Positions 3,046 through 29,975 of a stretch of DNA of 32,152 nt are shown one piece after another. The position numbers and the translations under genes are program-made. The notes below the pieces were generated by a model. It did no database searches, was not told where the DNA came from, and saw only the letters and a list, made by a program, of their open reading frames with translations. Position 1 is the stretch's first letter. Each line of letters opens with the position of its first letter. The stretch is from an uncultured archaeon (GTDB taxonomy: Archaea; Asgardarchaeota; Lokiarchaeia; Sigyniarchaeales; SOKP01): assembly GCA_964493715.1 (NCBI GenBank), contig CAZBPC010000029.1, forward strand, positions 2,205-34,356, given 5' to 3'.

Positions 3046-3053
3046 TTATAAAA
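3046..3053 (+). promoter_or_regulatory. Candidate TATA box (TTATAAAA) for the putative selenoprotein gene
   Basis: About 33-40 nt upstream of ATG 3086, with an SD-like GGTGA at 3079-3083. The AT-rich background weakens the call. Confidence 0.3.
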
Positions 3054-3085
3054 GAGAGTATCATAAAAAAATAATTCTGGTGATT

Positions 3086-3437
3086 ATGTTTTAAATTAAA
3101 GTTTTCAGAAACTGCATTAGATTATATTCGTGAACAAAATAAAAACTTTGAAGAAAACGATTTGGAAAAAAAAGTCGTTGTCCTCTTTTACCACTCTTCC
3201 GAATCATGACTTCTTTCATTCTGTGGAAACGTTGTAGAATTAGTAGAATCCAAAAAAGTAAAAAATGACTTGGATTTCATAGTTTGGATTGATGAGGAGA
3301 CCAATAAACTTGGGATTCAGGTTTACATTGAACAAAAAATAATAGATGAACTAAAACAAAATTCAGTAATCCAAATCAACGTGGCTATAGGCGAACTTAA
3401 AGGAGAAAAAATTGGATTCTTGTTCATGAAGACATAA
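3086..3437 (+). CDS. Putative HesB/IscA-like selenoprotein (~116 aa, in-frame TGA at 3207-3209); not in the ORF track. The start needs a +1 shift or correction of one extra T
   Basis: Frame 3090-3437 reads FKLKFSETALDYIREQNKNFEENDLEKKVVVLFYHSSES*LLSFCGNVVELVESKKVKNDLDFIVWIDEETNKLGIQVYIEQKIIDELKQNSVIQINVAIGELKGEKIGFLFMKT-TAA with a single TGA. The pattern resembles HesB-like proteins (x-S/T-E-x-A-x2-I helix, hydrophobic strand, redox residue, later G-I-x-V-Y-I-E). A SECIS-like hairpin follows. Confidence 0.7.
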
Positions 3438-3455
3438 GATATATCATGAGCAAAA

Positions 3456-3492
3456 ATGAACTTATTCTAATAAAAATGAGAGAATAGGTGAT
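3456..3492 (+). promoter_or_regulatory. Eukaryote-like SECIS element in the 3' UTR
   Basis: AUGAA (3456-3460), helix CUUAUUCU (3461-3468) paired with AGAAUAGG (3481-3488; 7 Watson-Crick + 1 GU), A-rich apical region AAUAAAAAUGAG, then UGAU (3489-3492). This gives the UGAN/NGAN core with tandem sheared GA pairs. Confidence 0.7.
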
Positions 3493-3861
3493 TTACGGTA
3501 GCTTCCGTATCATGTAAAATTTAAATATTTGCATAAGAAAATTTATAAAGAGATAATATCATTTAATCGATAATCTGACTAAAAAAGTTGAAACTGTATT
3601 ATACGAATCAGTAGAGTGTTTCGTTGTGTTGTTAGGATATTTCTTTTAGTATTAACCTTATCTTTAACTGAAGTTTCTATTCTTGGCGAAATTTTTAGTT
3701 CAGAAAGGTAAATATATCACAATCTCAGAGGAAAAGTTAAAGGAAGTTGAAGAGATTGAAGATATCTCGAAAATCTATAAAGATAATGACGATAGAAAAA
3801 GTAATTCTGGTCAAATTTAGTGTCTTAATGACAATAAAATAAAAAGAATTTTTGGATATTT

Positions 3862-7100: not shown

Positions 7101-8702
7101 TTAAAAATTATAAATGATTGACTTAAGATCCTCAACTATTTTTTGTCTGAGAGAACTATGTGAAACGCTTGGTAACAACTCTTCTAATATATCTCTTAAT
7201 TCAATAATCTTTTCTTTTAATAATTCTGGTTTGCTCCATAATGACTTTCGAAGGGGATGGCTATGAAGTATTGCTTTATTATAATTTTCTATTGATTCTC
7301 TATAAAAAAGGCAAGCACTATCATAATTCTCCAATCTAGTTTGATAAATAGTTCCAATCTTGTTAAAACACATGCCTGCTCCAGCATAATCACCAACATT
7401 TTCAAATAGAATTGCCGCATCTCTAATTTTACTTAATGCTGACTTCAAAACATCATTCTTTCCCTGTTTTAACAAGATATATCCAAGAATGTAATTAGAT
7501 ACAGCTTTATAAAACGTATTATCTTGTTCCTCTGCTAATTTTATTAGATCAGTTGCAAATTCTTCTGCTAAGACTAGATGATTGTTTGAGATGCATAATT
7601 TAATCAGATTTTGCAATAAATCTTGAATTCGGTCAAGATCTCCTTCTCTCTTATAAATCTTTATTCCTTGACGATATTTTTCTACTCCTGTAAAAGGATC
7701 TCGTTGTTGAAATGCTGAATTACCTTCATATATTAATTTTTCTGCTCTTTCTAAATTTCCTTCGATTTTAGTTTTGGTATGATTTGATTCATCCCAAAAA
7801 AGGTTATTGATGTCAAAAGAGACTTCTTTTTTCATAGGAATATCTACTAAGACTTCCTTATCTGGCCTTGTATCAATTTCAGTATTCATCTCATCTTTTA
7901 CAATGTTATTTTGATGTTTCTCACCATATGCTGACTGTAACGGTTTTCCTACTGATACTAAAGCTGATAATTCAGATAAAACGTTGGCAAAGAAATACTT
8001 ATTCAAACCCTCCACAATATAATCTACTTTATGGTAATTTGTCTCATATTCAGCAGAATTAGGATCCATATTAACATCTGTTAGTCTATATATCTCAAAT
8101 CCCGTACTGTATTTCGTTAATACATTCTCTCCGATTTTTTCTTCCCTCTTTTTTCCCAATAAACTATGATCAAAAACTAAACCAATTGAATCATTAAATT
8201 TATTTTGAAAACCTAGCTGATTTATAAGATCAACGTAAGAAAAGAATAACGTTAATCCTGGATGTGAATGGAACCAACCGACAACAAAATGTCCATTATT
8301 CTCTTCATACAATTGCTGTTCAATCTCATCTATAAAAATATAGTGCCTATGATCCAATTGAACATCCGTGTCATGACCAAAAGTTAAAGCATAGGCATTT
8401 TCTACACGGACAAAATCATCATCAACATAACCCGTTAGAATGCCATAAATTTCCTTCCATTCAGTAGGTGGTATCGCTTGATTAGCAAATCGACTTGCGT
8501 ATAAAATGATTGTTTTATATGCTTCAGCATTTATTATGGCAGGTTTACCAAGATTTAAAGATTCATCTTGTTTGGAGAATGCATTATTCTCATTATTAAT
8601 ATTACCATTTTTTTCCGGTTTTTGATTTTCATTAGACATTTTACTATAATTGAAGAGAATTTGACCATTTTTTGTTGCTTTAAAATCATATACAAATACC
8701 AT
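7101..8702 (-). CDS. JAMM/MPN+ metallo-isopeptidase (Rpn11/CSN5-like) fused to C-terminal TPR-like repeats
   Basis: Catalytic Glu in EIYGIL; GWFHSHPGLTLFFSYVD is an intact HxH-x7-S-x2-D motif (~8229-8270). The C-terminal ~210 aa are TPR/SNAP-like helices. True start may be the downstream Met (MSNENQ). Confidence 0.85.
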   Translation of the reverse strand: MVFVYDFKATKNGQILFNYSKMSNENQKPEKNGNINNENNAFSKQDESLNLGKPAIINAEAYKTIILYASRFANQAIPPTEWKEIYGILTGYVDDDFVRVENAYALTFGHDTDVQLDHRHYIFIDEIEQQLYEENNGHFVVGWFHSHPGLTLFFSYVDLINQLGFQNKFNDSIGLVFDHSLLGKKREEKIGENVLTKYSTGFEIYRLTDVNMDPNSAEYETNYHKVDYIVEGLNKYFFANVLSELSALVSVGKPLQSAYGEKHQNNIVKDEMNTEIDTRPDKEVLVDIPMKKEVSFDINNLFWDESNHTKTKIEGNLERAEKLIYEGNSAFQQRDPFTGVEKYRQGIKIYKREGDLDRIQDLLQNLIKLCISNNHLVLAEEFATDLIKLAEEQDNTFYKAVSNYILGYILLKQGKNDVLKSALSKIRDAAILFENVGDYAGAGMCFNKIGTIYQTRLENYDSACLFYRESIENYNKAILHSHPLRKSLWSKPELLKEKIIELRDILEELLPSVSHSSLRQKIVEDLKSIIYNF

Positions 8703-15834: not shown

Positions 15835-16905
15835 ATGATTGAAGAATTTTTGAGGGATGAAAAATCAGCTATAGACCTTCATTTAGAAGAATATTTTTCA
15901 AATTTGCATAATGAAGAAAAGGAAATTCTGCTAAAAGATTACACTTCTCAATTAAAAGAATTTGTCTTAAATAAAAAAGCTAAACGATTACATCCTATAT
16001 TATTAATAGCGGCATTTATAGGAATTGTTAATCCAATTTATTTAGAAGATCAAATTGAACACATTAGAAAAGTCTCATTAGCTATTGAATTATTACATAG
16101 TGCTTACCTTATCCATGATGATTTAATAGATAGCGATGAAGTTCGGAGGAATGAGCCTACATTTCATATTCAATTAAAAAATGAAATGAATAGGATATAC
16201 AAAGACTCAGATATCTTAAAATTTGACGCTTATAATATGTATGGAAGGGATTTAAGTATTCTAGGAGGCACACAAGGATATATCTTAGGACTTAATTTAA
16301 TAAAAGATTCAAAATTCCCAGATAATCTGAAATTAATGGCTATGAATGAATATATCTCTGCTATGGATTATATGGTGAAAGGGCAAATCCTGGAAATATA
16401 TATGCATTACCATAACATAACCATGACATTAGAACAGTATCTAAATATTGCTGAAATGCAAAAAGCACGATTATTAGAAAAATCCACTAAAATAGGAGCA
16501 ATATTAGCAAAAGGAAACTTACATTATCAAATCAAACCTCTAGGTGAAGCCTTACTACTTATGGGTCAAGCATACGCAATCAGAGATGATATTTTAGACA
16601 CGAGGGAAGACATTAAAAGTAAAAAGAAAAAAAGTCTCTATATTCTTGCAGTTCAGAATACAGACGAAGAGCAATCAAGAATATTGAATGAAATTTATCA
16701 TCAAGATGAATTATCATCAAGTGATGTTAAAGATGTTGAGAAGATCTTTGCTGAAACAAATGCCATAATTGTTGCTGATCATTTTGCTAAAAATTTAATT
16801 GTACAAGCAAAAAGACATCTTAAAGACATTTACCCTGATTTAAATAAAAATCAGAAGGTCTTCTTTAATGAATTTACTGATTATATTTATATGAGAGAAT
16901 TCTAA
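15835..16905 (+). CDS. Trans-polyprenyl diphosphate synthase (IdsA/GGPPS family), divergent
   Basis: AKRLHP, first Asp-rich motif LIHDDLIDSDEVRR, GQ, second Asp-rich motif IRDDILD. Confidence 0.88.
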   Translation: MIEEFLRDEKSAIDLHLEEYFSNLHNEEKEILLKDYTSQLKEFVLNKKAKRLHPILLIAAFIGIVNPIYLEDQIEHIRKVSLAIELLHSAYLIHDDLIDSDEVRRNEPTFHIQLKNEMNRIYKDSDILKFDAYNMYGRDLSILGGTQGYILGLNLIKDSKFPDNLKLMAMNEYISAMDYMVKGQILEIYMHYHNITMTLEQYLNIAEMQKARLLEKSTKIGAILAKGNLHYQIKPLGEALLLMGQAYAIRDDILDTREDIKSKKKKSLYILAVQNTDEEQSRILNEIYHQDELSSSDVKDVEKIFAETNAIIVADHFAKNLIVQAKRHLKDIYPDLNKNQKVFFNEFTDYIYMREF

Positions 16906-16913
16906 TGAAGAAT

Positions 16914-17519
16914 TTAAATCACTAAATACTTTGACTGATTATTTTTTAACATCAGGTTATTTAATTCTTTAAATACATGGATTACATTATAATTTTCCAA
17001 TGCTGAGGTTCTATAATAACCTGTTAATCTCTTTTCTTTTAAGAAAGTTTGAATAAGAGTTTCATCGACTAAATTTTCTTTTTGAGTTGTTTCAATTAAA
17101 TCTTTTTTACTTCCTACAAGAATTTTAGGTATACTTGAACCCTTTGCATGCTGGATTAATTGATCATACCAAAAATCTAAATATTCAAAAGATTCTGAAC
17201 TTGTTAGATCAAAAACCATTAAAGCCCCATCAGCCCCCTTGAGAAATTTAGGAATAAGTGGTCTAAAACGTTCTTGACCACCAAAATCAAAAATGGAATT
17301 TGAAACAAGTTTCTCTCCTTGATCATCAGAATTTTCAGTATTATAAATAGGTAAATTAATTGAATGAAAATTTATTCCAATTGTCATAGATGTATCAAAA
17401 TTGAATGAATTAAAGCAAAAACGATTAAAAAGACAAGTTTTCCCTACTGCTGGACCACCTAATATAACAATTTTAAAAGAATATGTTACTAATTTTTCTT
17501 GAATTGCAATTCTCTTCAA
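16914..17519 (-). CDS. Rab-like small GTPase (Asgard eukaryotic-signature type)
   Basis: G1 GGPAVGKT, switch I TIG, G3 DFGGQERF, G4 variant SKKD, G5 TSA; no C-terminal Cys. Confidence 0.92.
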   Translation of the reverse strand: MKRIAIQEKLVTYSFKIVILGGPAVGKTCLFNRFCFNSFNFDTSMTIGINFHSINLPIYNTENSDDQGEKLVSNSIFDFGGQERFRPLIPKFLKGADGALMVFDLTSSESFEYLDFWYDQLIQHAKGSSIPKILVGSKKDLIETTQKENLVDETLIQTFLKEKRLTGYYRTSALENYNVIHVFKELNNLMLKNNQSKYLVI

Positions 17520-28448: not shown

Positions 28449-29975
28449 ATGGTTATTCCTTTACCCGGTACACCTGTAATAGTAGATGTAGGTTCGGCTT
28501 ATTGCAAAGTAGGTTTTGCAGGAGAACCTAGTCCCCGATTTGTCTTTCCAACAATAACAGGCACAGAAAAATATAAAGCTGTGATGGTTGATGTTAATGC
28601 AAGAAATATTTATATTGGAAACGATGCGTCTCGAATGAGAGGGGTACTTAAGGTAAAACACCCAATAGATAGAGGTGCTATTTTGGATTGGAATGATTAT
28701 TATGAAATTTTAAATTATATATTTTATACTCTTCTAAGGATTGATAATCTCTCCAATTATCCTGTCCTCTATACTGAAGCTCCCTTTGTACAAAGAGAAA
28801 CTAAAGAATATATCGCACGTGTTTTATATGAAACACATAGAATTAAAAGTTTAATAATGGTTCCAACTCCTATTCTTTCAATATTTAGTGTGGGATTGAC
28901 AACGGGTCTCGTGATTGAGTCTGGAGACGGATTAACATGGGTGTGCCCTATTATTAATGGGCAAATTATAGATCAGAGCGTACAGAAATTGACTTTAGCT
29001 GGAATGGATGTAAATCAATATTTAAAAAATCTATTGATGAGAGAGGGCATCAATATAGAATCTTCTGCAGTAGAAGAGATTATTAGAGAAATTAAAGAAA
29101 AAAACTGTTATTTCATTTTAGATCCAGAAAGTCAACCAGATATGAATGATAGTTTCAATTTGTCGATGCCTGATGGTTCTTCGATAAATATTCCTCATTT
29201 TATCTTTCATGAAGCTCCAGAAGTAATGTTTCAACCCCAATTACTTGGATATCCGATTATGAGCATCTCTCAAGCAATTATTGAGAGTTTACAAGGAATA
29301 GATAAACATTATTGGTCAGACCTTTTATCTCATATTGTCATATCGGGAGGAAATTTCTCTTACTCTGGTTTTGAAGATCGATTAAAAATGGAGTTAAATG
29401 CGTTATTACCTCAATTAGGCAAGATTCCGAAACCTAAAGTTAATGAAGCTAAACAAGATTCTAAATTAAAATTAAAAAGTATAAAAGGTGGGAAAAAATC
29501 ACAGGATACATGTCCTCATTGTGGTACATTGGTAGATTTATCTGATGACAAAGAATTCTGCCCTTCGTGTGGTGGACGAATGATACTTCCCGAATTATCT
29601 ATAGAATTAGGTGGAACCCCATCAAAAGTTGAAATGATTGATGGAAAAGTAATATGTCCTCATTGTAATAAATTAATAGAAGACTTTTCATCTATTTTCT
29701 GCCCGTATTGTGGAAAGGGAGTGCAAACATTTGATCCCCCAGATGCAATGGCAAAAAAGATCAATCAAACGGTTCTTGCTAAAGAATTTTCTGGTTTTTA
29801 TGATTCGGTTGAAGAGGTATTAAGATATTTTGTTCCGGATAATCTTCAATATGCTATCTTTAATGGAGCTGCCATCTTAGGAAGTTTACCTTCTTTTCTT
29901 CGATTATTTGTAACTCATGAAGAGTTCTTGCAGAATAATGAACACTTATACAAAGACATAAGCGAAATTTTCTAA
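28449..29975 (+). CDS. Actin-family (actin-related) protein with double zinc-ribbon insertion
   Basis: DVGSAYCKVGFAG..P..VFP, PIDRG, TEAP, TTGLVIESGDG, LAGMDV, IKEK.CY, MPDG, PEVMFQP, ISGG and GAAILGSL. The insertion carries CPHC..CPSC and CPHC..CPYC. Confidence 0.93.
   Translation: MVIPLPGTPVIVDVGSAYCKVGFAGEPSPRFVFPTITGTEKYKAVMVDVNARNIYIGNDASRMRGVLKVKHPIDRGAILDWNDYYEILNYIFYTLLRIDNLSNYPVLYTEAPFVQRETKEYIARVLYETHRIKSLIMVPTPILSIFSVGLTTGLVIESGDGLTWVCPIINGQIIDQSVQKLTLAGMDVNQYLKNLLMREGINIESSAVEEIIREIKEKNCYFILDPESQPDMNDSFNLSMPDGSSINIPHFIFHEAPEVMFQPQLLGYPIMSISQAIIESLQGIDKHYWSDLLSHIVISGGNFSYSGFEDRLKMELNALLPQLGKIPKPKVNEAKQDSKLKLKSIKGGKKSQDTCPHCGTLVDLSDDKEFCPSCGGRMILPELSIELGGTPSKVEMIDGKVICPHCNKLIEDFSSIFCPYCGKGVQTFDPPDAMAKKINQTVLAKEFSGFYDSVEEVLRYFVPDNLQYAIFNGAAILGSLPSFLRLFVTHEEFLQNNEHLYKDISEIF

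Follow-up and report, generated by a model that had tools for sequence, protein, structure and literature searches.

The closest described relatives of the element reported here are the lokiSECIS, a 9-bp stem with an 11-nt loop known from five selenoprotein families (PMC4989117), and the Asgard type I eSECIS-like element, which is the same thing under a later name and whose model comprises an internal loop and a lower stem (PMC11227280). As far as the available text of these two reports goes, the searches that accompanied the lokiSECIS found no further selenoprotein, and the later survey lists seven Asgard selenoprotein families, found by homology to known selenoproteins, records no sbp2 in Asgard genomes, and mentions neither “hairpin” nor “HesB.” The accessible text of a further survey (PMC13188914) counts 11 archaeal families and gives Prx-like, AhpF-N, and DsbA-like proteins as the only Asgard-specific additions, and the accessible parts of PMC9723677 and PMC11291895 add no families. 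In the portions of this literature open to us there is no three-way-junction SECIS from Lokiarchaeia and no Asgard HesB-like selenoprotein; figures or supplements may show a side arm.

We describe an element in the window, by which we mean the whole stretch of 32,152 nucleotides analyzed here (positions 2,205 to 34,356 of contig CAZBPC010000029.1, from an uncultured lokiarchaeon). By comparison with its relatives, it is very probably an Asgard type I (eukaryote-like, Lokiarchaeia) SECIS serving the UGA of the gene upstream, which would be read through as selenocysteine (Sec). The kind of element is already known; new, as far as the text open to us goes, are its third arm and its service to a widespread selenoprotein clan that is in none of the lists there.

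RESULTS

Layout and folding of the element

A first-pass annotation of the window had placed a eukaryote-type SECIS hairpin 18 nt after the stop of a TGA-containing open reading frame, with a UGAN/NGAN kink-turn core, an upper helix of 8 bp, unpaired apical adenosines, a small hairpin behind it, and a possible outer pairing that would enclose both. Each of these pieces is present where the annotation put it (Table 1), with the refinement that the upper helix has 9 bp when its first A-U pair is counted, as Mariotti does. The hairpin has an energy of -7.1 kcal/mol (z = -3.5), a stability equaled by 1 of 200 shuffles, and the lowest-energy fold of positions 3440-3520 is a three-way junction that includes the outer pairing (z = -2.4; both by RNAfold).

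Table 1. Features of the gene and of the element behind it, in window coordinates
Feature	Position	Strand	Basis or remark
TATA-box-like octamer, inferred archaeal promoter	3046..3053	+	Sequence; similar motif at the same distance in the close orthologues L002-L009
Shine-Dalgarno-like GGUGA	3079..3083	+	GGUG(A/G) recurs there in most subfamily-A genes
Reading frame of the 115-residue predicted selenoprotein, subfamily A, motif U-x4-C-G-N	3090..3437	+	Translation, homologues
In-frame UGA read as Sec (predicted), residue 40	3207..3209	+	Invariant column; 249 nt before AUGA
Cys45, partner of Sec40 in subfamilies A and B	3222..3224	+	Invariant in 35/35 aligned proteins
Stop codon TAA of the upstream gene	3435-3437	+	Sequence
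Closing helix, 5' strand, three-way junction	3445..3449	+	RNAfold, partner-swap test
Bulged strand of the kink-turn	3452..3459	+	2-3 A from the short C helix; loop of 3 nt, U3457 last; G3458 A3459
AUGA, 5' part of the SECIS core	3456-3459	+	18 nt past the stop
Upper stem of 9 bp with 12-nt apical loop	3460..3489 (strands 3460-3468 / 3481-3489)	+	RNAfold, covariation
Apical loop, 12 nt	3469-3480	+	4 A in the first 5 positions, last two AG
3' GA of the tandem G.A core, with U residues closing the short C helix	3490..3493 (GA 3490-3491)	+	G, A, and U invariant in 42/42 aligned elements
Side hairpin (third arm), 5 bp, 6-nt loop containing GC	3494..3509 (3494-3498 / 3505-3509)	+	Covariation
Closing helix, 3' strand	3510..3514	+	RNAfold, partner-swap test

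Contigs from two further sequencing runs, neither of them marked as a possible source of the window, have no indel where the gene starts, at the UGA, or in the loop. Within the element, the only differences in a variant strain are one stem pair (U-A to U-G), one side-loop base, and unpaired flanking bases, and all pairs are kept. A single RNA run gave no coverage, a result without weight either way. Downstream of the element, 270 bases at 3557-3828 are absent from a variant strain in two runs, with 10 other letters in their place, which makes the short ORF at 3683-3820 variable.

Measured against the published definitions, the element has the Asgard type I core of Huang 2024, GA_[G/A]A after AU, and falls within the limits given there (stem of 7-15 bp, loop of 8-20 nt, energy below -5 kcal/mol) with 8-9 bp, 12 nt, and -7.1 kcal/mol; it also has the context named there: the gene just in front of it contains an in-frame Sec UGA, and the genome encodes Sec machinery. 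The strict lokiSECIS of Mariotti 2016 agrees with it in the 9-bp stem, in having A at four of the first five loop positions, and in a last loop base G after A, and differs in loop length, which is 11 nt there and 12 nt in the window and in the other runs. Loops of 11 nt are found in the nearest relatives, L002 and L003, and in 59 of the 83 elements collected for the clan (a set that includes two false elements behind Cys-coding paralogues, see below), and loops of 12 nt in 9 of the 83.

Likeness to the lokiSECIS/type I element, as the available text presents it, thus covers the AUGA, the 9-bp stem, the A-rich loop ending in AG, the GA, an energy below -5 kcal/mol, and the place close behind the stop of a UGA-containing gene. 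Apart from its longer loop, the window element departs from that text in its conserved side hairpin and closing helix and in its gene, which lies outside the five to seven Asgard families listed there. With the eukaryotic type I SECIS it shares the tandem G.A kink-turn core with AUGA, the unpaired apical adenosines, and the 3'-UTR position, but its upper stem is shorter and a third arm replaces the plain internal loop; an Rfam search of the element region gave seven matches up to E 10, none of them to a SECIS family, and the genome has no L7Ae-family protein of SBP2 size. The label “eukaryote-type” holds in the sense of the eukaryote-like Asgard type I, not of a strict eukaryotic SECIS. The same annotation had seen a weakness in a helix shorter than is typical of eukaryotes; the helix is short, but 9 bp is the normal length in Loki elements according to the text available for PMC4989117. 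The contrast that it drew with the methanogen type is borne out: the eaSECIS, in the accessible descriptions (PMC4989117, PMC11227280), has a GAA_A bulge flanked by a GC-rich lower stem and a short upper stem made up of GC pairs alone, whereas the window element lacks that bulge and folds (RNAfold) into a continuous, AU-rich 9-bp stem.

How often such a structure arises by chance was gauged on the whole genome (3.68 Mb). A pattern loose enough to admit the element hits 23 sites, 12 of them at or below -5 kcal/mol, and 10 of these 12 stable sites also have the kink-turn pair and the side hairpin, against 10-23 sites, 1-6 stable ones, and 0-2 with both extra features in ten order-4 Markov genomes of equal length. 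Shuffled AT-rich DNA had been named beforehand as the yardstick for the hairpin, and the element does better than shuffled and simulated DNA alike.

An independent covariance model and the Sec machinery of the genome

To judge the element by others of its genome, we used R2, a covariance model made from six VhuD, VhuU, and PrxL elements of this genome with the window element left out. Among the 25 scores listed for the window, R2 ranks 3453-3495 best (30 bits, E 8e-5), with the runner-up at 18 bits. The latter, at 16183-16225 (+), lies within a polyprenyl synthetase ORF, has no side arm, and is probably a chance match. The 30 bits of the window element, a score lowered by the extra U in its loop, are less than the 34-50 bits of ten elements from the genome-wide search and the 36-39 bits of the elements in its nearest relatives. 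A filtered genome-wide R2 search, which scored 150 of 2807 candidates, did not return the window element, and a stricter sequence pattern applied genome-wide missed it as well. Among the relatives, 24 of 29 loci have an R2 match at E <= 1 and 17 of 29 at E <= 0.01. A second model, R1, built for the family, finds the window element and no other in the genome; being family specific and scoring its own training sequence, it carries no evidential weight.

The genome encodes SepSecS and tRNA-Sec above the cut-offs and PSTK-like and EFSec-like genes below them, and has two SelD genes in tandem with one TGA each (contig C18:41768-44417). A relaxed tRNA scan that allowed introns returned noise. Its ten other type I elements stand behind four VhuD genes, one VhuU gene, one Prx-like gene, and four small genes that appear in no list. 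The VhuD and Prx-like genes are presumably what their motifs suggest, since it is by these that we named them; VhuU was identified by NF041786, below its cut-off. Of the four unlisted genes (elements at C4:10794 [-], C48:22207 [+], C14:11303 [+], and C111:7975 [+]), two have UGA-UGA in tandem, one codes for a small membrane peptide with GGG-U-G-C, and one is a short frame rich in Cys. At C59:3649 (-), a VhuD frame has an insertion before its first UGA and ends at a UGA just before the element. PF01248, the L7Ae family, finds two open frames of 126 and 127 amino acids, too short for SBP2, which is why we count no SBP2-sized member of that family in the genome.

Conservation and covariation

Of 44 homologous genes, 42 have the element behind them, and the remaining two end at contig edges; in those 42, it lies within -4 to 42 nt of the stop and 230-288 nt from the UGA. 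When a larger set is limited to genes with enough DNA behind them, it is present behind 48/48 subfamily-A genes, 14/14 subfamily-B genes, and 21/26 distant genes, with five of the 26 distant genes showing no element under the comparison score. Orthologues that retain the TGA are thus followed by the hairpin, the very point on which the first-pass annotation had let its proposal depend.

Covariation among orthologues, likewise proposed there as a check, is extensive. In the 42-row alignment, 94% of the upper-stem cells are paired and all nine pairs have changed on both sides, as have four of the five pairs of the side arm, whose hairpin is conserved. For stem and side arm together, 13 of 14 pairs show double changes, and 90% are paired, compared with 38-49% in slid controls; none of 500 shuffles reached as high a value, a count that overstates significance because the relatives are not independent. 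Conserved in the same alignment are the last loop G, the apical A residues, and the unpaired AUGA/GA core.

Three tandem paralogues with Cys at the Sec position have no R2 match of their own, and their Sec-coding neighbors have one. L069, L070, and L071 carry clan genes in tandem, up to three per array, in which a Cys-coding gene without an element stands between two Sec-coding genes that each have their own. A loosened score flagged two of the three Cys paralogues; we counted these calls as false because R2 finds no match there.

The elements also vary by lineage, with a 1-nt stem bulge in 25 of the 83 and with cores reading AUGU, AUAA, ACGA, or GUGA. Four orthologues that keep the UGA are followed by altered cores, AUGU in three (L005, L006, and L008) and AUAA in one (L024), and the L080 paralogue has an ACGA core behind an intact UGA gene. 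AUGU occurs on two separate branches of the gene tree, within the lineage with bulged stems. In L011 and L013 the gene stops earlier, yet the DNA that once coded for a C-terminal NVYG tail is retained in the UTR, where in L013 it builds the closing helix; RNA-level constraint or a recent stop is a possible cause of this retention.

Kink-turn, side arm, and closing helix

In 81 of 83 distinct elements a pair joins the base that lies two before AUGA to the one that follows the 3' GA (A-U in 69, G-C in 10, U-A in 2), and the next pair of the C helix forms in 67 of 83. The same two pairs are present in 10/10 and 9/10 of the ten other elements of this genome, with compensatory changes. As read from the sequence, the core is a standard kink-turn, in which the tandem G.A pairs and a bulge of 3 nt adjoin a short C helix of 2-3 bp; its three-dimensional fold is predicted.

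The side hairpin occurs in 74 of the 83 clan elements, with GC or GU in its loop in 71, and in 10/10 stable type I elements found with the strict pattern, against 0/15 simulated matches. The closing helix is supported by a partner-swap test on 42 elements, in which the own partner scores 13.5 on average and swapped partners 10.7, with 0 of 500 swaps as good; nor were any of 300 sets of shuffled flanks for the same 42. It is weak or made of A-U pairs only in about 12 of the 42. The outer pairing that had been offered as a possibility is found both in the fold and among the relatives.

The arrangement invites comparison with the k-junction (available text of PMC4005666), a motif marked by cross-strand A-minor hydrogen bonds and a kinked three-dimensional shape. 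There, a three-helix junction contains the G.A pairs of a kink-turn and its extra helix leaves from the nonbulged strand, as it does here. The window element differs from that description in having a covarying C helix of 2-3 bp that closes a kink-turn with a 3-nt bulge before the branch. Since the C helix precedes the branch, the element has the look of a simple kink-turn that stacks on a junction.

The gene, its UGA, and its start

The frame at 3090-3437 has matches in 39 of 100 genomes searched, all of one family; of 40 genomes from the same genus, 16 yielded no match. A single TGA stands in every one of the 44 best matches and in 45 of the 50 listed altogether, and other homologues have Cys at the position of Sec40. 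Public gene calls split the protein at the UGA into fragments of about 40 and 80 residues. That the UGA is recoded as Sec, the proposal that the hairpin had been taken to support, is backed by the UGA kept in homologues, the elements behind their genes, and the Sec machinery of the genome.

The start of the gene is unusual. The one ATG close to the Shine-Dalgarno motif, at 3086-3088, is in another frame, and no ATG, GTG, or TTG is in frame ahead of codon 25, a TTG (3162) that lies 24 codons inside the conserved part. Of 51 subfamily-A genes, 30 place NUG directly ahead of the first, conserved Phe codon, and in others AUA or AUU takes that place or the start lies upstream; ten, the window gene included, have neither NUG nor AUA nor AUU before that codon (window, L002, L003, L004, L006, L025, L057, L080, L087, and L088). 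L088, one of these ten, has a stop immediately ahead of the Phe codon, and four of the ten have one a codon further upstream. The N-terminal residues are nevertheless kept in the three closest relatives and six other genes that have no canonical start. The Phe codon lies 6 nt past the Shine-Dalgarno motif, and ATG codons in this genome peak at 5-6 nt. Comparison of the window gene with L002-L004 gives pN/pS values of 0.06-0.15 for codons 25-39 and 0.23-0.36 for codons 41-115, which denote purifying selection, and the four closest genes give 0.43-0.95 for codons 1-24, which from small counts points to weak selection.

An assembly slip in the T run after the out-of-frame ATG was considered and set aside: two other runs have no indel there, and the first Phe is as far from the Shine-Dalgarno motif as it is in the orthologues. 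A single programmed frameshift for all ten genes was likewise rejected, the out-of-frame start candidates lying in different frames. Near-cognate initiation (at UUA, at AUA as codon 3, or at UUU) is possible for these genes.

A clan of probable selenoproteins with an IscA-like fold

AlphaFold2, run on 35 sequences, predicts the protein with a pLDDT of 91. Foldseek with the predicted structure places IscA/SufA first (E 2e-4), with IscA/SufA/HesB-type proteins in the top 12 rows, and VIA finds IscA at Z 8.7 (rmsd 3.2 A over 92 residues), with proteins of the same types in the top seven. On this model, the protein has the beta-sandwich fold of IscA/HesB A-type carriers, with Sec40 in the loop between strands 28-38 and 43-53. 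Sequence comparison gives fewer clues: Pfam and NCBIfam searches with the window protein returned no match, PDB sequence searches with profiles A2 and A3 and with a Cys paralogue turned up nothing related to IscA, and PF01521 matches 2 of 35 members (best E 8e-5). In the PDB sequence search A3 did match IsdC (E 0.003), but we set this aside, since the fold search leads to other proteins.

Profile A2 detects the clan in 65 of 398 genomes of the phylum, with strong matches only in the window's family, and A3, built from seven distant members, in 73 of 398, across ten families, of which three lie beyond the class of the window; A3 and A2 match each other with an HH probability of 99%. The distant members have the UGA at the same place, and the 21 of 26 that have a recognizable element mostly have the side arm too. 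Judged by sequence, a clan with UGA and element is thus spread over several Asgard lineages and is missing from the published lists available to us.

The nearest described proteins are the HesB-like selenoprotein TIGR01911 (UxGP motif) and the CC/Se motif family NF041239, small proteins likewise of the IscA fold, whose Sec sits in the loop that follows the second strand. Neither model matches the window protein, which has the motif U-x4-C-G-N. Against NF041239 (cut-off, 40 bits), five distant members of the 16 clan proteins tested score 17-38 bits (best, 38.3 bits, E 1e-9) and none reaches the cut-off; TIGR01911 (cut-off, 66.35 bits) has no match in the genome or the window protein, and the best clan member scores 14 bits. 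Neither family is listed for Asgard archaea in the available text of the published surveys.

The Fe-S ligands of IscA are three Cys, including a C-terminal Cys pair that the window protein lacks; it carries only Sec40 and Cys45, and some distant members have a single Cys at the C-terminal end. We give close to an even chance to the prediction that Sec40 and Cys45 form a selenol/thiol site that binds or transfers iron or an Fe-S cluster; a selenenyl-sulfide redox center is a possibility rated somewhat short of that. The commonest neighbor, a divergent Ca-type P-ATPase (45 of 66 loci), offers no Fe-S clue, and an aconitate hydratase gene nearby in 11 of 66 loci is a weak hint at Fe-S work. Elsewhere in the window are an actin-family protein fused to C-terminal zinc ribbons (28449-29975, +) and two eukaryote-signature genes, for a JAB/MPN protein with C-terminal TPR-like repeats (7101-8702, -) and a Ras/Roc-type small GTPase (16914-17519, -).

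DISCUSSION

Three other accounts of the locus deserve weighing. A hairpin just past a stop codon in AT-rich DNA could be a terminator or a stabilizing 3' structure, and the UGA could then be a true stop in a split or dead gene, which is how the public gene calls treat it when they break the protein there. Such a hairpin would not need the unpaired AUGA/GA core, the apical A residues, or the last loop G, all of which are conserved; both halves of the protein are conserved as one fold; and the Cys paralogues do without the element. We regard this account as largely refuted and its probability as very slight. Still more improbable is that UGA means tryptophan (code 4) and the hairpin is incidental. 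Several public predictions do put W at the position, but TGA is the stop of 418 of 2277 long open frames, within which there are 8901 TGG codons, so that it is an ordinary stop genome-wide and code 4 is excluded; in addition, homologues have Cys there, not Trp, and tRNA-Sec and SepSecS are present.

The likeliest of the three accepts the element as a SECIS by descent but holds that the gene is in decay here, or hardly expressed, with its start lost and a base gained in the loop. The missing in-frame canonical start, the 12-nt loop, the lower R2 score (30 bits, against 36-39 in the nearest relatives), and the failure to find the gene in 16 of 40 congeneric genomes all fit it. Yet the frame is intact and under purifying selection throughout codons 25-39 and 41-115, the three closest relatives and six other genes are start-less as well and keep their N-terminal residues, 12-nt loops recur in 9 of 83 elements, and the variant strain retains every pair. 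Decay of this copy therefore seems improbable to us, and we proceed with the reading of a type I SECIS at work behind its gene.

On that reading, the kink-turn in the 3' UTR of the mRNA would carry the 9-bp upper stem with its apical adenosines, and the folded element would, following the published model, recruit EFSec and Sec-tRNA to the ribosome. The UGA 249 nt upstream would then be read as Sec, and the stop adjoining the element would still terminate, as in the available accounts of its relatives (PMC4989117, PMC11227280). SBP2 is not the expected binder of the window element. Since these archaea appear to be without it, we propose that an L7Ae-family protein, for which the two short ones in the genome are putative candidates, binds the kink-turn; the side arm may be a second contact or a folding brace.

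A bolder combination of these points can be put forward as a speculation that we consider unlikely as a whole. The three-armed kink-turn would be the true pre-eukaryotic SECIS, and the G-pyrimidine loop of its side arm would dock an archaeal factor later replaced by SBP2. The gene would found a sixth widespread Asgard clan, a Sec-containing A-type Fe-S carrier, throttled in several lineages, that of this genome included, by non-NUG initiation, possibly at the conserved UUU six bases after the Shine-Dalgarno motif.

The element bears on how a 3'-UTR SECIS may be recognized in archaea without SBP2. Some 80 natural variants, with their compensatory changes, bulged lineage, and altered cores, single out the core, the C helix, the side arm, and the closing helix as the parts of first interest. 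With the clan in 65 to 73 of the 398 sampled genomes of the phylum, a frequency that would put it beside the five listed widespread families, surveys by homology alone undercount the Asgard selenoproteome, and selenium would be tied to an Fe-S carrier fold in the closest relatives of eukaryotes.
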